This document shows positions 4,342-53,502 of a DNA stretch of 64,000 nt, piece by piece (the first letter of the stretch is position 1; every line of letters begins with the position of its first letter). Location: positions 1 to 64,000 of the IMG/VR virus record IMGVR_UViG_3300044471_000009; one strand, written 5' to 3'. The notes beneath the pieces were generated by a model. It saw only the letters and a program-made list of their open reading frames with translations, ran no database searches and was not told where the DNA came from. The position numbers and the translations under genes were made by a program. This DNA is from a virus. Its lineage: Duplodnaviria > Caudoviricetes.

Positions 4342-4417
4342 TGGTGCTCCTGGAGGGATTTGAACCCCCAACCGTCCGGTTATGAGCCAGCGGCTCTGCC
4401 AGTTGAGCTACAGGAGC
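4342..4417 (-). tRNA. tRNA with CAU anticodon (elongator Met or Ile2)
   Basis: GCTCCTG/CAGGAGC acceptor, CT-CAT-AA loop, TTCAAAT T-loop, encoded CCA. Confidence 0.9.
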
Positions 4418-4418
4418 T

Positions 4419-4494
4419 TGGCGGCCCCGGAGAGAATCGAACTCCCAACCTACGCGATAGGAGCGCGATGCTCTATCCTTTGAGCTACGGGGCC
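4419..4494 (-). tRNA. tRNA-Arg(CCU)
   Basis: Canonical cloverleaf, CT-CCT-AT loop, encoded CCA. Confidence 0.9.
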
Positions 4495-4760
4495 GTGATT
4501 GACTTGTAGTGCATTGCCGGATCATATTCAGTTATCTGCGCAGGATCAACGCAATACCAATTCACAGTTTTGTGAGATTTTGACCACACAATTTCTAACT
4601 CTTCGTTATTGCGGCACTTAAACAGACCGCCCACTCTCCACATCATGCCACCGTACAACTTGGCATGATGCCGTATCCATGATTCTGCATGGCTCTTTTT
4701 GTTCCATGAGAGGCCATCAACAATAGAACCATCTTTTCTTTTCAATGAATATCGTGCCAT
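4485..4760 (-). CDS. Hypothetical protein inside the tRNA cluster
   Basis: ORF track; stop codon overlaps the 5' end of tRNA-Arg. Confidence 0.5.
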   Translation of the reverse strand: MARYSLKRKDGSIVDGLSWNKKSHAESWIRHHAKLYGGMMWRVGGLFKCRNNEELEIVWSKSHKTVNWYCVDPAQITEYDPAMHYKSITAP

Positions 4761-4817
4761 GATAATAGAAATTGCAGGCATTTCACCTGCCGGGCTGCTA
4801 TTTCAAGCCATGTTCAC

Positions 4818-4892
4818 TGGCGACCCGTGGCGGAATTGAACCGCCGTTTCTGCCTTGAAAGGGCAGCGTCTTTACCACTTGACGAACGGGCC
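4818..4892 (-). tRNA. tRNA-Glu(UUC)
   Basis: CTGCC-CTTTCAA-GGCAG anticodon arm, canonical D and T arms, CCA. Confidence 0.95.
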
Positions 4893-4896
4893 TTAA

Positions 4897-4966
4897 ATCT
4901 CTCCAGCCCGGAATTGAACCAGGTTCTTGCGCAAGGCAAACCATCGCTCTTTTGAGCTACTGGAGG
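4897..4966 (-). pseudogene. tRNA-like element (D-arm and T-arm, scrambled anticodon arm)
   Basis: CTCCAG/CTGGAG acceptor, GCTC-AAAA-GAGC D-arm, CCTGG-TTCAATT-CCGGG T-arm. Confidence 0.55.
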
Positions 4967-5181
4967 TGTTTTAAAGATACCAATCATCGGTGAGTGTAGC
5001 CGAAATTTATCTTCAAGCTTCCTCAATCCCACCATTAAAGAAGATAAAGACAACCCCCGCCTGGATTAGACCATCCGCCCGCCGCACTCGTATTAGTTTT
5101 ACTGGACGATGATTGATAAACTGCTTCAAGTAACCGGCTTTGGTGCGCAGTTCTGCGAGATGCGTTGCCGGTGTTATTCAT

Positions 5182-5264
5182 TGGCTGGCCCGGCAGGAAT
5201 CGAACCTGCGTTAGGGTGTTTGCTGATCAGTGGCCACCCCAGCCTTCCACTTGGCTACAGGCCA
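5182..5264 (-). ncRNA. tRNA-Gln-like RNA with a 16-nt anticodon loop
   Basis: TGGCCTG/CGGGCCA acceptor plus GCCA end, GCC-AAGTGGA-AGGC D-arm, GCAGG-TTCGATT-CCTGC T-arm; loop GCCACTGATCAGCAAA. Confidence 0.7.
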
Positions 5265-5272
5265 ATATTTCT

Positions 5273-5356
5273 CAAATTCGCCCCTCGGCAGGATTCCGCC
5301 TGCGCGTTTGTCGGACTGGCCGTCCGTGCCATTTGTCTCACTTGAGTTACCGCAAA
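5273..5356 (-). pseudogene. Highly degenerate tRNA-like element
   Basis: TA-ACTC-AAGT-GAG D-like arm, CGGAC/GTCCG hairpin, GCAGG-CGGAAT-CCTGC T-like arm. Confidence 0.3.
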
Positions 5357-5414
5357 GTTATTGCCTTGCGGACATATCATGCGGTATCGCAGCCGCACTC
5401 CCTTCGCGCCTGCA

Positions 5415-5525
5415 CTCGGCAAACGATCAGGAATCGAACCTGACCTACTTGGGGTGAATGACGAGACTTCAACTCGAACCTCTCAGGTTCACAGCATTGA
5501 TGCTCTACCATTGAGCTATTCCCGC
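5415..5525 (-). ncRNA. tRNA-like element with a hairpin inserted in the anticodon loop and a long variable region
   Basis: GCGGGAATAGCTCAATGGTAGAGCA 5' half; TCAAT/GTTGA stem around a 22-nt loop; TCAGG-TTCGATT-CCTGA T-arm. Confidence 0.5.
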
Positions 5526-5540
5526 AAACTCCATTGCTTT

Positions 5541-5831
5541 CTACCGAAAACCCCGCTTTCCTGTTATTTCATCAAGCATACGCTGCCGGTTTGCGTCGGC
5601 TTCGCTGCCACTGCCAGCTACAGCATTAAGCATGACAGGAATAACCAATATCAATGATTCAACAGGGAAGAGGCCATGATCAACAACCCCTTCGTCGTTG
5701 AGCCATTCACATTTGAAGTTGCCGTCTGGACGCTTCTCAATGGCCGTCACCTTCATCTCCGGGCCGCCAGATTTCAGTCTAACGGTATCGCCAACCTGAA
5801 CCGCAACCGGACCTTCTGTTTTAAAGATCAT
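5541..5831 (-). CDS. YodC/DUF2158-like small beta protein
   Basis: VGDTVRLKSGGPEMKVTAI...CEW motif. Confidence 0.8.
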   Translation of the reverse strand: MIFKTEGPVAVQVGDTVRLKSGGPEMKVTAIEKRPDGNFKCEWLNDEGVVDHGLFPVESLILVIPVMLNAVAGSGSEADANRQRMLDEITGKRGFR

Positions 5832-5868
5832 TTCCACGTTTGCTTTCCTCTTGACTTTAAACGCTAAT

Positions 5869-6072
5869 CTAAAGCGAATCAATGAAAGGCGCGACTACCA
5901 ACATGCAACACAGAAATTCACTCCCCAGGCACGTCCAGTCTTGGGTGAACCATACGTAGCTTGCGGCCTGACCTGCACTTGGAGTGAACAAGCCTTCAAT
6001 AGCCATATTCTGGCCACTGGCATTGAGCCTGACTACATCTCCAGCTTTCATCTCTGCTTCATTCAAAGCCAT
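5869..6072 (-). CDS. Second, divergent YodC/DUF2158-like protein
   Basis: MKAGDVVRLNASGQNMAI...VWF. Confidence 0.6.
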   Translation of the reverse strand: MALNEAEMKAGDVVRLNASGQNMAIEGLFTPSAGQAASYVWFTQDWTCLGSEFLCCMLVVAPFIDSL

Positions 6073-6113
6073 CGCTTTCCCTCTCGGAAAAGAGATATTT
6101 GCCAACTAAAAAA

Positions 6114-6199
6114 TGGCGGAGGAAGTAGGATTCGAACCCACGGTGCTTTCGCACAACGGTTTTCAAGACCGCCGCCTTCAACCGCTCGGCCATTCCTCC
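6114..6199 (-). tRNA. tRNA-Ser(UGA)
   Basis: Class II tRNA: GCGGT-CTTGAAA-ACCGT anticodon arm, long variable arm, CCA. Confidence 0.95.
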
Positions 6200-6518
6200 T
6201 GAAAAACGCGCTGCAACATGAATCAGGATACAGGAGCTGATTCATAATCACGTCTATCACACGTGTGCAGCGCAAAACTGTCAAACAAAAAAATTCCAGC
6301 ACTATGGCAAGATCATGCCTTGCTGTTGAATTCACCGCATTACCAGCGTCACTCGGAGCCTTGATAGGGACGGCCAGTTGTTCATGCTGACCCGACTTTC
6401 TGATTATGGAGCGTGTCTATCCACGCCGCAGAGTGTTGGAGCAAAATCTTCCCGACCGGCTTTATGGAGCCAGCTCCCAACTAAGGGCTGCGGCTCATGG
6501 AACCGCAGGGGATAGTAT

Positions 6519-6547
6519 CTTTTACCATTTCCAAAGCGGCCCGTCAA
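6519..6547 (-). promoter_or_regulatory. Sigma70-type promoter driving the leftward tRNA island
   Basis: TTGACG-17 bp-TAAAAG with extended TG; shares TGGTAAAA with the promoter at 4158-4186. Confidence 0.55.
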
Positions 6548-6581
6548 TGCTTTTTTAGCGTTGGAGCGGGAAATAAAAAGG

Positions 6582-6713
6582 ACAGGTATTGATACAGGTA
6601 ACTGTACAGGTACAGAGCAGGTACAAGACAGGTACGGATGATAAATATCAATAGCTTAGATGGTGTACCCGTACAGGTATAGAGCAGGTACAAGACAGGT
6701 AATTGTACAGGTA
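6582..6713. repeat. Nine (A/G)CAGGTA heptamers in two clusters at 11-12 bp spacing
   Basis: Copies start at 6582, 6594, 6606, 6617, 6628 and at 6673, 6684, 6695, 6707; 6604-6634 and 6671-6701 form a near-identical direct repeat. Confidence 0.9.
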
Positions 6714-15315: not shown

Positions 15316-15347
15316 CATTCCTGTAACTTTTCAACAGGAAACGACCG

Positions 15348-15372
15348 AAGCCGCCCAGCAAGCGGCTTTTTC
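15348..15372 (+). terminator. Intrinsic terminator before the modification/packaging operon
   Basis: aagccgc/gcggctt stem plus T-run. Confidence 0.7.
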
Positions 15373-15459
15373 TATTTCGTGTGTCGCATGGCTAAAAAAA
15401 AAATACATTTCTGTGATTTTTCCCTCGACAACCGGTCGTTTTGTTGCTATTTTACAAAT

Positions 15460-15957
15460 ATGGAAATCATACACAAGAAAGTTGCCGACCTGATACCTTA
15501 CGCCGGGAATCCGCGCAAGAACGACCACGCCGTTGCGCCTGCCGCTGCGATAATCAAGCGGTTTGGGTTTCGGGTTCCGTTGCTTATCAAGAGCGATGAC
15601 GAAGTTATAGACGGTCATTTGCGCCTGAAAGCTGCCGTTAAGCTGGGCTACGATGAGGTTCCTTGCATTATCGTAGATGACATGTCGGATAATGACATCC
15701 GTGCGTTGCGAATCAGTGTGAACAAGCTCGCAGAGAAGGCTGATTGGGATGATGAACTGCTGAAACTTGAACTTGATGAGCTGGAGCTGGCGGGGATTTC
15801 TCTCGAAGAAATCGGGTTTGAGGTTGGCGAGGCAGGCGAGTTGCCCATAGAAGACGAGAAAGCCAACTCGCCGGAAGATTTCAAGGAAGTTGATGAGGGT
15901 ATTGAGACCAATCATGAATGCCCGAAATGCGGGTATCGGTGGAGCGGCGGAAAGTGA
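15460..15957 (+). CDS. ParB/Srx N-terminal domain protein with C-terminal CPKC
   Basis: LIPYAGNPRKND...IKRFGFRVPLLI...VIDGHLRLKAA. Confidence 0.9.
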   Translation: MEIIHKKVADLIPYAGNPRKNDHAVAPAAAIIKRFGFRVPLLIKSDDEVIDGHLRLKAAVKLGYDEVPCIIVDDMSDNDIRALRISVNKLAEKADWDDELLKLELDELELAGISLEEIGFEVGEAGELPIEDEKANSPEDFKEVDEGIETNHECPKCGYRWSGGK

Positions 15958-15997
15958 AGCGCAAGTGTTGCTTAGGCTGTGATTTTTTCTTGTCTAA

Positions 15998-17299
15998 ATG
16001 ATAAGGATTGTGCGAAGCGGCACCGGGTTGCAGGCTCACGGGTCAAGAACAATCCTCCAGCCTTGCCCTACGATTATGGCCGGAGGATTGGGAGGCGGAA
16101 ACTGCTCTCAATACTGGCTGGAAGATGATGGAATGCAGATGCCGATAGAAAAAAATAATAAGCCTGAATACCGCGTTCTAAGCATGGATGAAATTCGCGC
16201 TTTGCCGTGGAACGGGTTCAATGCCGTCTCGACATTCAGTGGATGCGGCGGGTCGTCGACTGGCTACAGAATGGCCGGTTTTCGCGTCCTGTGGGCATCT
16301 GAGTTTATAGATGCAGCAAGGGATTCGTATCGGGCAAACAAGGCCGACTACACCATTCTTGACGGGCGCGATATTCGGCAGGTCACCGCCTCTGAAATCC
16401 TCTCAGCTATCAAAATGCAGCCGGGAGAACTTGACTTGTTCGACGGCAGCCCGCCTTGCGCATCGTTCTCAACCGCTGGAAAACGTGAGGCCGGATGGGG
16501 CAAGGTTAAGAAATATAGTGACAAGTCCCAGCGAACCGATGATTTATTTTTTGAATACGCAAGGCTGATCAAAGGGATTCAGCCTAAAACATTCGTTGCC
16601 GAGAACGTGAGCGGCCTTGTCAAGGGGACAGCAAAGGGATACTTCCTTGAAATACTGGCCGCGCTGAAGGCTTGCGGCTATAAGGTATCGTGCCGTGTTC
16701 TTGATGCTCAGTGGCTTGGAGTGCCGCAATCAAGGCAGCGAACCATCTTTGTTGGTGTTCGTGAAGACTTAGGCGTTGACCCGGCGCACCCGAAGCCGCT
16801 GCCGTATCGCTACAGTGTGCGTGATGCATTGCCGTGGATTGTAGCTGTTGGCGACAACGGGGGATTTGGAAAAGGGGCTATGCGTTCGGCTGAATCAGCA
16901 GCGTCGGCGACAATCGGAGCAAGCCCGCAAACAGGGAACGGCAAGTTCCCGCCTTCGCTGGTCGAGGCTGTGATTTATGACATTGGAGGCTCGTTTGCGT
17001 CGGCGCAGCCTATCACGAACGCCCCGTGTCCGACTGTGTGTTGCGAAACCTCGCAATCCCATTATCTTGTTCGTGGAAAAGGAGATAAAGATACTTTTAC
17101 AGCTCATGCGCCTGACGGGGTAGAACGCCGCAAATTCACCATCGCTGAACTCAAGCGCATTTGCGGCTTCCCGGATGATTTTATCCTGACTGGAACCTAC
17201 GCTCAGCAATGGGAGCGCCTTGGCCGTGCCGTCCCTCCTGTCATGATGTCACATATTGCGGCGACTGTTAGAGATGAGATGTTGAGGATGTTGAAGTGA
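15998..17299 (+). CDS. C5-cytosine DNA methyltransferase-fold enzyme with Arg in motif X (predicted carboxymethyltransferase)
   Basis: Motif I FSGCGG, IV GSPPCASFS, VI AENVSGL, VIII PQSRQR; motif X is LGRAVPP instead of GN[AS]V. Confidence 0.9.
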   Translation: MIRIVRSGTGLQAHGSRTILQPCPTIMAGGLGGGNCSQYWLEDDGMQMPIEKNNKPEYRVLSMDEIRALPWNGFNAVSTFSGCGGSSTGYRMAGFRVLWASEFIDAARDSYRANKADYTILDGRDIRQVTASEILSAIKMQPGELDLFDGSPPCASFSTAGKREAGWGKVKKYSDKSQRTDDLFFEYARLIKGIQPKTFVAENVSGLVKGTAKGYFLEILAALKACGYKVSCRVLDAQWLGVPQSRQRTIFVGVREDLGVDPAHPKPLPYRYSVRDALPWIVAVGDNGGFGKGAMRSAESAASATIGASPQTGNGKFPPSLVEAVIYDIGGSFASAQPITNAPCPTVCCETSQSHYLVRGKGDKDTFTAHAPDGVERRKFTIAELKRICGFPDDFILTGTYAQQWERLGRAVPPVMMSHIAATVRDEMLRMLK

Positions 17300-18108
17300 C
17301 ACTGGCGACTGATTTTAGAAATGTATTCGTTCGTGCGGTAGGTCAAGATGCCAAGCATTCTCTTTTTCTTTCTGGCGGAGTTGACAGCGCAACAATCCTT
17401 GCGGCGCAGCTTCACCTTGGAAACAAACCTGATTGCTACTCCTTTAGATTCGGAGATTATCCATCTGAAGACAATCTTGTGGCAAGACAGATGGCTGCTG
17501 CGTTTGGCCTTCGATATGTCGAGGTCGCTGTTCGTCGAACAGCGGAAGCTATGATTGCTGACGCAAAGGAAGCTATCGCGCTTGGTGGGAGTTATTTAAA
17601 AACACATGTTCATGTAGGAATCCCGTTTCTTTACCTCTGCCGGGCGTTAAAGGGTGATGGTGTAGATGCAGCTCTCTTTGGAATGGCGGCTGATGATCTA
17701 TGGGGGTCAGGAAGACACGCAAGAATTGCCGCATCAAGGGGGCCTGATGAATTTCGCAAATTTAGACTGAATAAAATAACCGACACATCGCAGTCAGATT
17801 TTTCTGTCCTACGTCTTGCATCCAGTCTTGGAATTTCTCTTTATGATCCATACAGAAACAATGATGTAATAAAGCTGATGCTTAATGCTGGTTTCAATGA
17901 AATGCACAAGCCGCGTGACAAAGCACTCGCGCTTTCTGCGTTTCCTGAGTTTTGGCAGCATGGCAAATGGTATCGTCCAAATAAATCACTGCAAGTTGTG
18001 TCTGGAATCCGTGCTGCACATGATACGCTGCTGAAAGACCCTGCTATCAATACCGGCAGGCATCGCGCCATAGTAGGTCTGTACCATAAGCTGGCGAATC
18101 ATCTATGA
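17296..18108 (+). CDS. Asparagine-synthetase-like ATP-dependent amide ligase (synthetase domain only)
   Basis: PP-loop LFLSGGVDS; LFGMAADDLWG (cf. GEGADELFGG); no Ntn glutaminase domain. Confidence 0.8.
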   Translation: MTLATDFRNVFVRAVGQDAKHSLFLSGGVDSATILAAQLHLGNKPDCYSFRFGDYPSEDNLVARQMAAAFGLRYVEVAVRRTAEAMIADAKEAIALGGSYLKTHVHVGIPFLYLCRALKGDGVDAALFGMAADDLWGSGRHARIAASRGPDEFRKFRLNKITDTSQSDFSVLRLASSLGISLYDPYRNNDVIKLMLNAGFNEMHKPRDKALALSAFPEFWQHGKWYRPNKSLQVVSGIRAAHDTLLKDPAINTGRHRAIVGLYHKLANHL

Positions 18109-18782
18109 ACGAGACAACCTTTAGCATCCCTGCCGACTGGACATTCAACCGCCCGGACATAGCAGCAGGGTTTGACAAGCATGTCCGGGAGCAGCTTCCT
18201 TGGTATGATTTAGCCACAGGAGCGGTTGCGCATATAGCCAGGCACTTCCTTCCTGAAAACGGGCTGATTTACGACATAGGGGCCAGCACCGGCAATATCG
18301 GGGAAGCGTTGGGAGACAGCATTGCAAGCCGCAATGCGCGTATGGTTGCCGTGGAGAAGTCTGCCGAGATGGTTGCCTGTTATCGCGGGCCGGGTGAATG
18401 CGTCGAGGCTGATGCGTTGACCTTTGATTTTCAGCCGTGCGACGTATGTGTCTGCTTTCTGGTTTTGATGTTTATTCCTGTCTCGGAGCGGGCCGCCTTG
18501 GTGGAAAAGCTCGTGAAGTCTGTCCGGCCCGGCGGCGCACTTATTATCTTCGATAAGACTGAATATCGGGGCGGCTACCTGTCAACCGTGATGCACAGGC
18601 TGACGATAGCAGGAAAAGTGGCTACAGGATGCGACCCTTCTCAGATAATCAGGAAGGAGTTGAGCCTGTCTGGGACACAGAGGCCGCTGTCTGTCGATTT
18701 CATTGAAGGATTTGACCCGAAAATGATTGAGGTTTTTCGTTTTGGTGAATTTGCTGGGTGGATTATAGAAAAACATGCCTGA
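18105..18782 (+). CDS. cmoA: CmoA-like carboxy-SAM synthase / class I SAM-binding protein
   Basis: WTFNRPDIAAGFDKHVREQLPWYD and IYDIGASTG resemble CmoA (WTFD..VA..F..M..RS.PGY, VYDLGCS.G); FLVLMF; PGGALIIFDK. Confidence 0.8.
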   Translation: MNETTFSIPADWTFNRPDIAAGFDKHVREQLPWYDLATGAVAHIARHFLPENGLIYDIGASTGNIGEALGDSIASRNARMVAVEKSAEMVACYRGPGECVEADALTFDFQPCDVCVCFLVLMFIPVSERAALVEKLVKSVRPGGALIIFDKTEYRGGYLSTVMHRLTIAGKVATGCDPSQIIRKELSLSGTQRPLSVDFIEGFDPKMIEVFRFGEFAGWIIEKHA

Positions 18783-19125
18783 ACTCATAACGCTTACAGA
18801 CAAGCAAATAGCTCAGATTGAGGCGTTGGCGCAGTATCTAACGCTTGAGCAGATAGCAGACCATCTTGGAATTTGCCGCAAAACTCTTTTGAACAAGAGA
18901 AATGAGCATCCTGAGATTGAAGCCAGTTACAGAAAGGGGAAAGCAAGGGCTATAGCGTTTACGTCCAAGAGCTTGATGAAAAACATTGCAGCCGGGAAAG
19001 AGGCGAGCATAATCTTTTTCTTGAAGACGCAGGCCGGATGGAAAGAGAACAAGGATACTGGCGATGACGATGACGATGCTCTTGAAAGACTGACAAGCGC
19101 ACAAGATGACGCGCTCGGCAATTGA
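18775..19125 (+). CDS. terS: Terminase small subunit
   Basis: N-terminal HTH (LEQIADHLGICRKTL), ASIIFFLKTQAGW; immediately before terL. Confidence 0.85.
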   Translation: MPELITLTDKQIAQIEALAQYLTLEQIADHLGICRKTLLNKRNEHPEIEASYRKGKARAIAFTSKSLMKNIAAGKEASIIFFLKTQAGWKENKDTGDDDDDALERLTSAQDDALGN

Positions 19126-20375
19126 TAAAATTTAGCGAAAAACAGATTGCCGTCATCCGGGAGATAGAGACAGGCCACCGTATCAATGCGCTTATAGGGC
19201 CAACGAGGTCTGGGAAGAGCCATATAGTAAACCACTTGCTTCCTCGGCGAGTCAGAGAGATGGACGGCAGGGCTGGCTTGCGAATGCTGATAGCGAAGAC
19301 ACTCGGAAGCGTTGAGAGCAACATCCTCATTCCATGCAGAGAGATGTTCGGCGTGAAGCGTGTCAGCAGGATGCGGATGCAGAGCGGCCTTATGGTTGCA
19401 CAAGTCTTTGGCAGGGATTTTGTCTGCATGGGCGGCGACAACATAAGGGCCGTTGACAAGTTACGCGGAAAAGCTGTATGTTATGCGTTGGGAGATGAAG
19501 TTGTAGAGTGGCCTGAAGAGCTTTGGGAGATGTTGAAGACACGTATGCCAAAAGCGTACTGCCGGGCAGACCTTACAGGGAATCCGCGAGGGCCACAGCA
19601 CTTTTTCAAAAAGTTCCTTGATAGGGCTAAAAACGAAGGGCTTGATGTCTATGCGCCTTCTTTCAGTATTGATGATAACCCTACGCTGACTGAAGATGAG
19701 AAAGAGCATCTTCGCAGGTCTTTAACAGGCCTGTGGTACAAGAGGCTAATACTTGGGCTTTGGGTGGCAGCAGAGGGCGCAGTCTATGACATGCTTGATG
19801 AGAATCACCATCATGTCCGCGGCCCGGCACCACGCTTCAGGAACTACTGCCTTGGCGTTGACTTTGGCCTGACACATCCTACAGCGGCTTGTCTGCTCGG
19901 ATGGGACAGGCCAACCGAGGTTTTTCAAGTAAGCGAGTGGGGATACAGCCGAAGGGAAGGTGAAGAAACGTGGACGGTGCAGCGGATTGAGCAGGGCATT
20001 TCCGGCTGGTTAAGTTCTCTTGGAATCACAGGAGAGATAGACACTTACCTTGACCCTTCAGCAGCAGCGTTTAAGGCTCAATTGCGGGCTGCTCAGGGCA
20101 AGATAAGCTACAGGCTTCTTGCGACTGATAACAGCCAAGCAGACGGCCTTCCGTTCATGCAAACGGCATTCACTGACAGACGGCTCAAGCTGTACATTGA
20201 TCATTGCAAGCGGACGTGGGAGCAGCTTTGCGGGCTGGCATGGGATGGCAAGGCGACTGAAAGAGGAAAAGATGCGGTTGTCAAGAATGATGACGACTGG
20301 CCTGATGCGCTGAGATATGCGTTTTACAGCAGATTTGGAAAGAAAATGGCCCGTGCAATGGATTTGAACTTATGA
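19122..20375 (+). CDS. terL: Terminase large subunit (PBSX-like)
   Basis: Walker A GPTRSGKS, Walker B ALGDEV, TGNP motif, nuclease GVDFG and DDWPDALRY. Confidence 0.95.
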   Translation: MIKFSEKQIAVIREIETGHRINALIGPTRSGKSHIVNHLLPRRVREMDGRAGLRMLIAKTLGSVESNILIPCREMFGVKRVSRMRMQSGLMVAQVFGRDFVCMGGDNIRAVDKLRGKAVCYALGDEVVEWPEELWEMLKTRMPKAYCRADLTGNPRGPQHFFKKFLDRAKNEGLDVYAPSFSIDDNPTLTEDEKEHLRRSLTGLWYKRLILGLWVAAEGAVYDMLDENHHHVRGPAPRFRNYCLGVDFGLTHPTAACLLGWDRPTEVFQVSEWGYSRREGEETWTVQRIEQGISGWLSSLGITGEIDTYLDPSAAAFKAQLRAAQGKISYRLLATDNSQADGLPFMQTAFTDRRLKLYIDHCKRTWEQLCGLAWDGKATERGKDAVVKNDDDWPDALRYAFYSRFGKKMARAMDLNL

Positions 20376-21793
20376 GCGAAGTCAACAGCAGCATCAAGTT
20401 TGCATCACCTGAAAGAGACGCTTGGCTTTCCAGCACACTTCTCTCAAGGTCTCTGTTTGCTGGCAGCGAGGCGATGCGGTCGCAGGGGACGTTGTTTCTG
20501 CCGCAAGGAGCTTCCGAATCTGATGCTGAATACAAACAGCGAAAGGATGACAGTTTTCTTATCCCGGCCTATAAAAAGGTTGTTCAACTCTTGGCTGGGC
20601 AGGCGTTCAAAACAGACGTTATTGTTGACGCTGACGGGGTGTTTAAAGAGATAGCAAAGCAGCCGTCAACAAATGACGATAGCCTTACAAATTTTTGCAA
20701 GAAGAGTTTCGAGAGAGACCTTGTTGATGGTTGCAATCATATTCTTGTTGATGCGCCAACCCCATCCGAAGAAGACCCTCCTGAAGGTCGCCGCCCCTTC
20801 TTTAGGTCTATATCTCCAGAATCAATATCTGCGGCAGTTTATGATCAAGGAAAACTTGTATGCCTTAAAATTGATGAGAAATTTGAAGAGAAAGAAGGAA
20901 GGTTTTCAAGCAAGCAGCTCAATCAATGGAGAGTCTTTGAGCTGGAATACATGGAAAGCGTCGCTGAAGACGGAACAATAACATACAGCTATGGGCAATG
21001 CAATTGGGAAGTTTGGAGGGAGAGCGGAAGCACTGAGAAACTTTTTGATTCGGGTTATCTTGACATTGATTATATTCCGATAGCATTGTTCAGCGGAGCA
21101 GTTTACGGCGAGCCTCTGCTTTCAGACCTTGCCGACCTGTGCGAATCTCACTGGCAAAGCAACTCAAAGCAGACATATATTATGTCTGCGGCAAGAACTC
21201 CTATTCTCTTCACGAAAAACTTGGAGTTTGAAAAGGAAGTTGATGCCGACGGGAACGAGAAGCCTACCTTCAGGGCATCTTCGAGAAGGTTCCTGATCGG
21301 CGGAGAAGGTTCCGATGCAAAATGGGTAGAAATACAGGGCGGCTCTATAGACGCAGGGTTTAAGCATCTTGAGAAGATCGAGAATGCTATGGAATCATAC
21401 GGCGTAAACCTTTTCTACCGCCCAGAGCAGACAGCCACAGCAAAAGGGATAGATTCAGCAGCATCATACTCCACGCTCGAATCGTGGGCGTTGATCAAGC
21501 AGACTCAGATACAGACTGCGTTTGAGATTGCTGGTGACTTGCTTGGAGTGCCATTCCCGGAAGACGCAGTGCATGTGCAGCGTGAATACCTCGGATGGGC
21601 GCAATCCGCTGAGGTTAGAGCAATGCTGGCAATGCTACTGTCTGGCAACGCAATATCGCCAGAAACAGCATTTAATGCAGCAAAAAGATATGTCCAGCCT
21701 ATCGAGAACGAAGACTGGAAAGATGAAAGCAAAAGGATAGAGAAGCAACAACTAAGTAAAACTTCGGAGGAAGTTGATGAGCAATCTAATTGA
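20372..21793 (+). CDS. Portal protein (DUF4055-like)
   Basis: Follows terL; FLPQ..ESD.EY..R motif; 473 aa. Confidence 0.85.
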   Translation: MSEVNSSIKFASPERDAWLSSTLLSRSLFAGSEAMRSQGTLFLPQGASESDAEYKQRKDDSFLIPAYKKVVQLLAGQAFKTDVIVDADGVFKEIAKQPSTNDDSLTNFCKKSFERDLVDGCNHILVDAPTPSEEDPPEGRRPFFRSISPESISAAVYDQGKLVCLKIDEKFEEKEGRFSSKQLNQWRVFELEYMESVAEDGTITYSYGQCNWEVWRESGSTEKLFDSGYLDIDYIPIALFSGAVYGEPLLSDLADLCESHWQSNSKQTYIMSAARTPILFTKNLEFEKEVDADGNEKPTFRASSRRFLIGGEGSDAKWVEIQGGSIDAGFKHLEKIENAMESYGVNLFYRPEQTATAKGIDSAASYSTLESWALIKQTQIQTAFEIAGDLLGVPFPEDAVHVQREYLGWAQSAEVRAMLAMLLSGNAISPETAFNAAKRYVQPIENEDWKDESKRIEKQQLSKTSEEVDEQSN

Positions 21794-52416: not shown

Positions 52417-53502
52417 TCATTCATTTCCAAACACCTCCGGCCACCGCTTTGCAAACTCTTCCCGCAGCGGAATCATCACTTCGCGCATGGATGGCTCTGC
52501 CGCCTTTGAGCAGCGCAGCTTGAAGATGTGTCGCCACTGCTCTAAATTGGCGTAAATAATGAGTTCCGTCTTGCAAGAATTGGGCAGCACGGTACGGGCT
52601 TCCTGTGGGCTTGCGCCGTAACCTATCATTGTCAGGTACGCTTTCTCAGTCGACCTGCACTGGTTATACCATGCCCAATACCTCTCTGTATATGTATCTT
52701 CTTGATTCAAATGCCTCCACTGCGGACAATCTTTGGCAAAATTGTACTCTTCTTTCTTAGTGTCGCAGGGCCTTTCGACGCATAGGTTACATGGCTGCGA
52801 GGATTCAGGAAGAAACGCACTCGGCCTAATAAAAGTTACTTCATTGCCGAATTTCCCAGAGGCATAATTGCAGTAACGTTGTGAGGTTTGCAATATAGCC
52901 ATAGCTCTGTGGCGACAAATCTCGTGGCTTATTGCGCGATTTACAATGAACTTGACCGCGATGTGGCGGTGCTTGGCCAGCAAGTCCGCAGGCAGCCGCT
53001 CCACCTCTTCCAGAGGCACTTTGCGGACAGTTATGCTGGACATGATCAATTTGCATTCCAGCGTGATGTCATCAAAGAAATACGGGTGTTGCTTGCGGAG
53101 CAGTGCGCAGGCAGCCAAAACTACGCCGCACTGCTCCGGGTCACCGATTAACATCTCTCGCCATGCCCGGATGCTGCCAGTAATCAGCATCCGAACCCTG
53201 TCCGCGCCAGACGACCTATCTTCATTTGGCGTAACTTTAGAAAGCTGAAGATATTTAGGAATCGTTTCGAGAAAATCGAAATAATCCCAAGAGTCACAAT
53301 TGACCTCCAGTGTCACAACGCCCATTTCTAAAACCGAATTGTGGCCGCTTTTAATCGCCTTCTCGACAAACGGCAAGGCCGACTCCGGCGTGATGCGGTC
53401 TTCGCTCTTGTAGCAGATGCGCCCGCAATGCTCGATGCGAACGGGAAGGCTCTGCTGGTCGAGATGGTCAAGAATTTCAAAGGATGCAGGAACTATCTTC
53501 AT
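52417..53502 (-). CDS. thyX: FAD-dependent thymidylate synthase
   Basis: EHCGRICYKSE, GHNSVLE, RHR-x7-S (RHRAMAILQTSQRY), EARTVLPN. Confidence 0.95.
   Translation of the reverse strand: MKIVPASFEILDHLDQQSLPVRIEHCGRICYKSEDRITPESALPFVEKAIKSGHNSVLEMGVVTLEVNCDSWDYFDFLETIPKYLQLSKVTPNEDRSSGADRVRMLITGSIRAWREMLIGDPEQCGVVLAACALLRKQHPYFFDDITLECKLIMSSITVRKVPLEEVERLPADLLAKHRHIAVKFIVNRAISHEICRHRAMAILQTSQRYCNYASGKFGNEVTFIRPSAFLPESSQPCNLCVERPCDTKKEEYNFAKDCPQWRHLNQEDTYTERYWAWYNQCRSTEKAYLTMIGYGASPQEARTVLPNSCKTELIIYANLEQWRHIFKLRCSKAAEPSMREVMIPLREEFAKRWPEVFGNE

Follow-up and report, generated by a model that had tools for sequence, protein, structure and literature searches.

The closest described counterpart of the locus discussed here is the CmoA-CmoX-CmoY pathway, which Yang et al. 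(Nat Commun, December 2025, PMC12783734) showed by experiment in Synechococcus phage S-B43. The phage CmoA produces carboxy-S-adenosylmethionine (Cx-SAM); CmoX, a homolog of the C5 DNA methyltransferases, uses Cx-SAM to form 5-carboxymethylcytosine (5cxmC) at GC sites. CmoY, an asparagine synthetase homolog devoid of a glutaminase domain, ligates glycine to the carboxymethyl group as an amide (PMC12783734). Here we analyze four contiguous plus-strand genes (15460–18782) of an uncultured tailed phage, IMG/VR record IMGVR_UViG_3300044471_000009, whose positions 1 to 64,000 are called the window in the following. They encode, in this order, a ParB-like protein, a C5 transferase, an amide ligase and a CmoA-like protein. 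The locus is a further member of the published system, and its core chemistry is already known; IMG/VR, from which the window record stems, was itself mined by Yang et al. (PMC12783734). A preliminary description of the window, made from the sequence, had referred to a cyanophage precedent. This precedent exists and is phage S-B43 (PMC12783734).

In the crystal structure of SpCmoX (8YF3), Arg350 stands at the position of Asn304 in HhaI and holds the carboxylate of the cofactor, and the SPPC motif S95–C98 holds the catalytic Cys (PMC12783734). The wild-type enzyme accepted only Cx-SAM, and its R350N mutant was inactive; in vivo, E. coli CmoA alone was enough for SpCmoX (PMC12783734). In vitro, 5cxmC blocked HhaI (PMC12783734). 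A survey of IMG/VR v4, UniProt and MGnify in the same work yielded 5,615 CmoX proteins with SPPC and R350, 4,257 CmoA proteins, 2,251 ligases in several clusters and 1,660 ParBc neighbors, the role of which was called unknown (PMC12783734). The ligase network was built with a threshold of 1e-56. In several of its clusters, the pocket residues differ and the amines are unidentified, several smaller ones retain the residues that bind the glycine carboxylate, and the second-largest carries a glutamine amidotransferase domain and was predicted to use glutamine-derived ammonia (PMC12783734).

Comparison with described systems

The window locus and S-B43 have in common a CmoA homolog, a protein of the C5 methyltransferase fold bearing SPPC and the Arg that binds the carboxylate, and a glutaminase-less ligase of 270 or 271 aa. 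In both phages, the genes lie side by side and overlap at their ends, and CmoB is absent. In contrast, gene order is CmoA-CmoY-CmoX in S-B43 and ParB-CmoX-CmoY-CmoA in the window, and the S-B43 locus that we read contains no ParB partner. Outside the CmoX core, identity is low (27–28% for the ligase, about 22% for CmoA), and the target-recognition region does not align. Moreover, the S-B43 genes lie in the replication region of a T4-like cyanophage, whereas the window cassette stands before the terminase genes, in a phage genome of at least about 90 kb.

The closest CmoX from a cultured phage, with 56.7% identity, belongs to the cluster gp122–125 of Streptomyces phage TurkishDelight, where ParB-like, CmoX, ligase and CmoA-like genes follow each other in the same order as in the window. 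The TurkishDelight ligase, however, has 466 aa and an N-terminal glutamine amidotransferase domain, which the window ligase lacks. The temperate, cultured Moraxella phage Mcat8 likewise has ParB-like, CmoX (45%) and CmoA-like (46%) genes, directly followed by terS, terL and portal, but it has no ligase and presumably makes plain 5cxmC. In engineered M.MpeI N374K (Wang and Kohli 2021, as far as the account of it in PMC12783734 goes), a basic residue at the Asn position of motif X leads to the use of Cx-SAM; there it is an engineered Lys in a CpG-specific enzyme, whereas the window enzyme is natural and has Arg. Finally, the E. coli CmoA/CmoB pathway to 5-oxyacetyluridine (cmo5U) in tRNA also uses a CmoA family enzyme that makes Cx-SAM. 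It differs in that the window has no CmoB, and that the acceptor in the window phage would be C5 of DNA cytosine instead of 5-hydroxyuridine (ho5U) in tRNA.

Evidence for the three proposed pathway enzymes

We consider it likely, judging from homology and gene neighborhood, that the products of the cassette synthesize Cx-SAM, use it to form 5cxmC and then convert the latter to an amide. This succession had been put forward in the preliminary description; each of its steps has a counterpart in the pathway of S-B43 (PMC12783734), and it gains support from three predicted enzymes that are homologous to validated ones and carry their diagnostic features.

The transferase has a C5 DNA methyltransferase fold (PF00145, residues 74–423, expectation value (E) 3.5e-52). 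Its best match among solved structures is SpCmoX (8YF3, E 4.2e-64), followed by M.HaeIII (E 7.8e-24). In the catalytic loop, DGSPPCASFS of the window enzyme aligns with DGSPPCSAFS of SpCmoX, both with the SPPC motif; in motif X, ERLGR(410)AVPP aligns with ERVGR(350)MVPP, where M.HaeIII has Gly-Asn. The Arg variant noticed earlier is thus real, with Arg410 at the position of R350 in SpCmoX and of the Asn in M.HaeIII. The motifs with the cytosine-contacting Glu and Arg are also present and aligned (AENVSGL with ENV, PQSRQR with QxRxR). These motifs are shared by nine of ten transferases from other loci bearing a CmoA-like gene, and an insertion after the catalytic loop, GWGK-x-K-YSD, is common to the window enzyme and the aligned transferases of such loci. 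Among the 120 nearest homologs, GSPPC is found in all and the motif X Arg in 118. At least 6,383 proteins match the window transferase at E 1e-30 or better, and the family is therefore very large. In the whole record, it is the single C5 methyltransferase gene.

Some members of this family deserve mention in their own right. Two homologs, P0195 (62% identity) and P0228 (50%), have ERLGN-SVPP, with the canonical Asn in motif X and not Arg; they may be cases in which members of the clade switched naturally between SAM and Cx-SAM as cofactor. A CmoX homolog with 66% identity (P0176) is encoded in Verrucosispora sp. TAA-831, on a contig of 7.0 Mb, so that the system also occurs inside actinobacterial chromosomes, presumably as prophage. 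A metagenomic protein of 559 aa (P0376) combines a C5 DNA_methylase domain (22–345) and a CmoA-like domain (343–558) in one putative fusion polypeptide.

The ligase shows the architecture of CmoY, since it matches PF00733 (E 8.5e-16), has an intact PP-loop (SGGVDS) and comprises about 270 aa without a glutaminase domain. A profile of 42 members of its clade aligned with SpCmoY over 246 columns (hhalign 100%, E 9.2e-42, 27% identity), indicating full-length homology. An AlphaFold2 (AF2) model (pLDDT 97) had its best fold matches in AsnB (1CT9), beta-lactam synthetase and carbapenam synthetase, in each case with the synthetase domain (TMq 0.70–0.80). In all eight genomic contexts of the clade that were read, the ligase is clustered with a C5 methyltransferase and a CmoA-like gene, with gene order shuffled. 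Three residues that are near-invariant in the clade, R227, R239 and H242 (WYR..SGIR.HD), are replaced in SpCmoY.

Within the phage collection searched, the ligase clade has no cultured representative (best match 28% identity), and a pattern scan with the single ligase sequence gave no relative among viral contigs. A 13-row ligase alignment searched against genome representatives returned one full-length relative, in a Microbacterium contig from a metagenome-assembled genome (32%). The other matches to this alignment were ordinary PP-loop enzymes, and the search gave no indication of a host.

In several relatives, further genes lie at the ligase. One (L048) has a gene for an AdoMet_dc family pyruvoyl decarboxylase between ligase and CmoA (5867–6202, 111 aa, 64.5 bits), which may supply or trim the amine. 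Another (L010) encodes a SET domain protein beside the ligase (5579–6013, 144 aa), and a third (L049) a 204-aa protein of unassigned family (5983–6597). The window record has no AdoMet_dc gene and none of these extra ligase-side genes, a weak negative given that it is about 78% complete.

The CmoA-like protein has TIGR00740 (CmoA) as its top NCBIfam match (E 7e-17). With the single sequence, a search of solved structures returned the CmoA structures 4GEK, 4IWN and 1IM8 at E 1e-14 to 2e-10, the next match being at 1e-4. A profile of 72 clade members matched the same structures, CmoA of E. coli and of Haemophilus, with E between 4.9e-36 (for 4GEK) and 1e-33, and covered positions 8–217 of 219, hence the full length of CmoA. 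The next methyltransferase followed at E 9e-14, about 20 orders of magnitude weaker, and was matched in the Rossmann core only. The AF2 model (pLDDT 95.7) was closest in fold to 4GEK, 4IWN and 1IM8 (TM ~0.8). K184 is invariant among five phage CmoAs, and E. coli CmoA has a Lys aligned with it. The Arg next to this Lys in E. coli was dropped as a mark of CmoA, as both the window protein and the active SpCmoA have Glu there.

No CmoB was found in the 90-kb record, and Cx-SAM hence has no tRNA-modifying user in it. In one relative (L050, 5882–6720), a CmoA-like gene has immediately behind it a gene for a type II chorismate mutase (78 aa, PF01817, 37.3 bits), by which the phage itself would provide prephenate for making Cx-SAM.

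The ParB-like protein as a putative partner of CmoX

The first protein of the cassette combines an N-terminal domain of the ParB_N/Srx type with a DGHLR motif in it, an acidic tail (PEDFKEVDE, residues 138–146) and a terminal H-x-CPKCG knuckle. It scored 20.4 bits against PF02195 (ParB_N, E 5e-4), below the gathering score of 26.3, and matched phrog_620, 'ParB-like partition protein', at E 5.8e-46. Its family counts more than 1,662 homologs, phage proteins of 165–170 aa, most of them with a precomputed PF02195 match, and each member has a core of the ParB_N type, an acidic tail and a CPxCG that is invariant at the terminus. As its 165 aa hold no helix-turn-helix (HTH) or dimerization domain, we call the protein ParB-like and do not regard it as a partition ParB.

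Its gene lies directly 5' of CmoX in the window, its closest relative L006, TurkishDelight, the phages PaBG and Mcat8, L053 and one European Nucleotide Archive contig. Two sampled homologs (59 and 50% identity) directly precede C5 methyltransferase and CmoA-like genes, and the Mcat8 ortholog was recognized by hhalign at 100%. In L050, a C5 methyltransferase of 545 aa without the GR motif X carries a ParB-like extension fused to its C terminus.

In a modeled complex, CmoX (407 aa) and the ParB-like protein reached a score of 0.62 (three runs, 0.51–0.66), with the best control at 0.00. In calibration, the mark was attained by 58 of 80 solved complexes and by two of 110 mismatched pairs, counts that hold only roughly here because author-made alignments were used. 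The runs agreed in 42% or more of their contacts, with a partner pLDDT of 67 or more. The confident contacts join ParB-like residues 133–150 with CmoX residues 182–213 and 238–247 (407-aa numbering); on the CmoX side, a helix takes part together with an edge strand and HPKPLPYRYS, a conserved segment. On the ParB-like side, P138, F141, E143, I/V144 and D145 are each the commonest residue at their site in the family. The model supports docking of the ParB-like tail on CmoX and falls short of demonstrating it.

The preliminary description had suggested that novelty might lie in the phage lineage, the ParB-like partner and the final amine. For the partner, this is mostly pre-empted, because 1,660 ParBc neighbors had already been reported (PMC12783734), and for the lineage, it holds only in that this is an uncultured phage of sediment and wastewater.

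Apparent exchange of the target-recognition region

The closest relative of the window phage is L006, a 68-kb Joint Genome Institute contig. According to blastn, the DNA flanks of the transferase are 92–94% identical between the two, whereas 286 bp of the window (16843–17128) show no similarity to the 430 bp at 5404–5833 of L006. Outside the target-recognition stretch, both CmoX proteins are near-identical. This points to an exchange of recognition cassettes between the window phage and L006, which, as read from the sequences, would probably change the modified motif. From the window region not aligning with that of SpCmoX, it follows that the GC specificity of SpCmoX is not transferable to the window enzyme.

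Proposed pathway and alternatives

We propose that the locus is most likely a late-expressed, post-replicative cytosine hypermodification cassette of the CmoA-CmoX-CmoY type. The CmoA-like enzyme would convert SAM and host prephenate to Cx-SAM. The Cys of GSPPC in CmoX would then attack C6 of the target cytosine and the carboxymethyl group would be transferred to C5, giving 5cxmC, while Arg410 in motif X would hold the carboxylate of the cofactor. As a third step, the glutaminase-less PP-loop ligase would adenylate the 5cxmC carboxylate and join an amine to it, which is glycine in S-B43. The ParB-like protein is probably a DNA-binding accessory and would dock on CmoX by its acidic C-terminal tail. 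Translational chaining links the cassette to terS, terL and portal, and the DNA is therefore probably modified around the time of packaging. A likely benefit would be protection from host restriction or other DNA-targeting defenses, as the published work found HhaI to be blocked by 5cxmC in vitro (PMC12783734).

Several points weigh against this pathway. All its steps are read from homology and gene context. The ligase is only 27–28% identical to SpCmoY; in a pairwise tblastn, both matched at E 2e-16, far weaker than the 1e-56 network threshold (PMC12783734), and are thus without a direct link; and the C-terminal motif of the clade, AFPEFW..G.WYR..LQVVSGIR.HDTLL, differs from AFEDEF..AVK..LQLGSNID.FETLL in SpCmoY. 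For these three reasons, glycine cannot be assumed as the amine. The CmoA-like protein is divergent, sharing only about 22% identity with E. coli CmoA as well as with SpCmoA, and its TIGR00740 score of 61.9 bits stays below the equivalog cut-off of 193.3. Validated SpCmoA also fails this cut-off (115.6 bits), which hence does not define phage CmoA enzymes, although the window protein is more divergent still. Moreover, methyltransferases of the CysG/BelI type score nearly as high as CmoA in the fold search, so that only the sequence profile separates CmoA from them. Neither a chorismate mutase nor another prephenate source was found in the record, a weak point as the record is only about 78% complete. 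Finally, the contact between the ParB-like tail and CmoX comes from the model alone.

The same pathway may run with an amine other than glycine, be it ammonia, yielding 5-carbamoylmethylcytosine, another amino acid, a polyamine or a decarboxylated amino acid. This is a variant of the proposed pathway and not an exclusive rival, and we regard it as a realistic, if not the expected, outcome. It would agree with the distance of the ligase clade from SpCmoY (27% identity), in which R227, R239 and H242 are replaced, with the AdoMet_dc-like, SET and 204-aa protein genes beside the ligases of L048, L010 and L049, and with the several published clusters of different pocket residues and unidentified amines (PMC12783734). 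On the other hand, several smaller clusters keep the residues binding the glycine carboxylate (PMC12783734), and the window phage lacks the extra enzymes, with its ligase having the architecture and length of the glycine ligase. With somewhat less confidence, we suggest that the ligase clade may join a non-glycine amine, leading to an undescribed DNA base, and that in addition the ParB-like protein may be a true CmoX subunit that docks by its acidic PEDFKEVD tail and loads the transferase on DNA before packaging.

Other readings would alter the pathway itself. Many CmoX-CmoA cassettes, such as those of Mcat8 and L053, have no ligase, and 5cxmC can hence stand alone. It could then be the final mark also in the window phage, with the asparagine synthetase-like protein acting off DNA on a nucleotide, a metabolite or a protein. 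This is improbable, as the ligase gene overlaps both neighbors by 4 nt, was found together with C5 methyltransferase and CmoA-like genes in each of the eight clade contexts and encodes a full-length homolog of an enzyme that acts on 5cxmC in DNA. We give even less credit to the CmoA-like protein being an ordinary methyltransferase, which might for example methyl-esterify the carboxymethyl group, as CmoM does on tRNA, while CmoX draws on Cx-SAM from the host CmoA. The divergence of the protein, its score below the NCBIfam cut-off and the near-equal fold matches to C-methyltransferases would fit such a role, and SpCmoX required no CmoA besides that of E. coli in vivo (PMC12783734). Yet the CmoA profile match extends over the full length and lies 20 orders of magnitude above other methyltransferases, and validated SpCmoA falls below the cut-off as well. 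Furthermore, a chorismate mutase gene adjoins the CmoA-like gene in L050, CmoX and CmoA are joined in the putative fusion P0376, and both are paired in thousands of phages (PMC12783734). Hardly credible, finally, is an ordinary 5-methylcytosine methyltransferase amid unrelated neighbors. The Pfam DNA_methylase fold would allow it, and the clade can hold either residue in motif X, as P0195 and P0228 have the canonical Gly-Asn; the window enzyme, however, has Arg, and Arg-bearing SpCmoX takes only Cx-SAM and is dead as R350N (PMC12783734). Also, the CmoA-like gene is conserved as a neighbor. We hence retain the CmoA-CmoX-CmoY type pathway as the preferred interpretation.

Gene layout, genome and habitat

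The preliminary description was right in seeing four contiguous genes, the last three with overlapping start and stop codons, and the sequence read directly gives GTGA (17296–17299) at the transferase/ligase junction and ATGA (18105–18108) at the ligase/CmoA-like junction. The order implied by its title, with the CmoA-like gene first and the ParB-like gene last, has to be corrected to ParB, transferase, ligase, CmoA (Table 1). The ParB-like open reading frame (ORF) opens at GTG 15379; ATG 15460 is the supported start, since more than 1,600 homologs of 165–170 aa align from there. A gap of 40 nt separates the ParB-like gene from the transferase ORF. For the transferase, ATG 16076, where the public gene call begins and yields a protein of 407 aa, is the probable start; numbering of the 433-aa ORF equals the 407-aa numbering plus 26. 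The terminator-like and promoter-like matches 5' of the cassette are no commoner than in shuffled sequences.

Table 1. Features of the cassette and the adjoining packaging genes in the window (aa, amino acids)
Feature	Position	Strand	Basis or remark
Terminator-like hairpin and T-run, end of upstream unit	15347–15369	+	Consensus match
Promoter-like site	15425–15453	+	Consensus match
ParB-like protein, 165 aa	15460–15957	+	PF02195 E 5e-4 (below cut-off), phrog_620 E 5.8e-46
Putative CmoX-type C5-carboxymethyltransferase, 433-aa ORF	15998–17299	+	PF00145 E 3.5e-52, 8YF3 E 4.2e-64
CmoX target-recognition region, about residues 282–377	16843–17128	+	blastn against L006; protein alignment
Predicted CmoY-type PP-loop amide ligase (ATP-dependent, AMP-forming), 270 aa, without glutaminase domain	17296–18108	+	PF00733 E 8.5e-16
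Probable CmoA-like carboxy-SAM synthase, 225 aa, class I methyltransferase fold	18105–18782	+	TIGR00740 E 7e-17
HTH small-terminase-like gene	18775–19125	+	8-nt overlap with CmoA-like gene
Large terminase (terL)	19122–20375	+	Chained by overlapping stop/start
Portal	20372–21793	+	Chained by overlapping stop/start

The window is the first 64 kb of a linear record of 89,967 bp that is estimated to be 78% complete, and its G+C content is about 49%. In the rightward arm, BRO-like and other early genes are followed by the cassette and then by terminase, portal, head and tail genes. Replication genes, among them those for ThyX, a UvrD-like helicase and DnaB, lie in the leftward arm, which starts at about 48 kb. 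The ThyX-type thymidylate synthase of this arm (361 aa, 52417–53502, minus strand) has its Thy1 match split into two stretches. A tRNA cluster on the minus strand (4342–6199) comprises Met-CAT, Arg-CCT, Glu-TTC and Ser-TGA together with an unusual Ser-like gene with the anticodon ACT.

With megablast, 20 kb of the window gave no DNA match to cultured phages. The best TerL matches are Streptomyces phages with about 35% identity, which is too distant to name a host. Near-identical DNA occurs in metagenome runs from sediment, wastewater and aquatic samples of several studies, counting shares of at least 0.23.

Implications

The locus opens no new field; it bears on the questions of the amine, the ParBc partner and target specificity that the published work left open (PMC12783734). 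For the amine, it offers a compact four-gene example of a ligase clade with unassigned amine, expressible in E. coli, which makes Cx-SAM itself. For the role of the ParBc partner, it gives a testable model in which the tail docks on CmoX. For target specificity, nature supplies a pair in the window phage and L006, near-identical phages with CmoX proteins that differ only in the recognition cassette; this would be of use for placing carboxymethyl groups, as handles, at selected DNA motifs.

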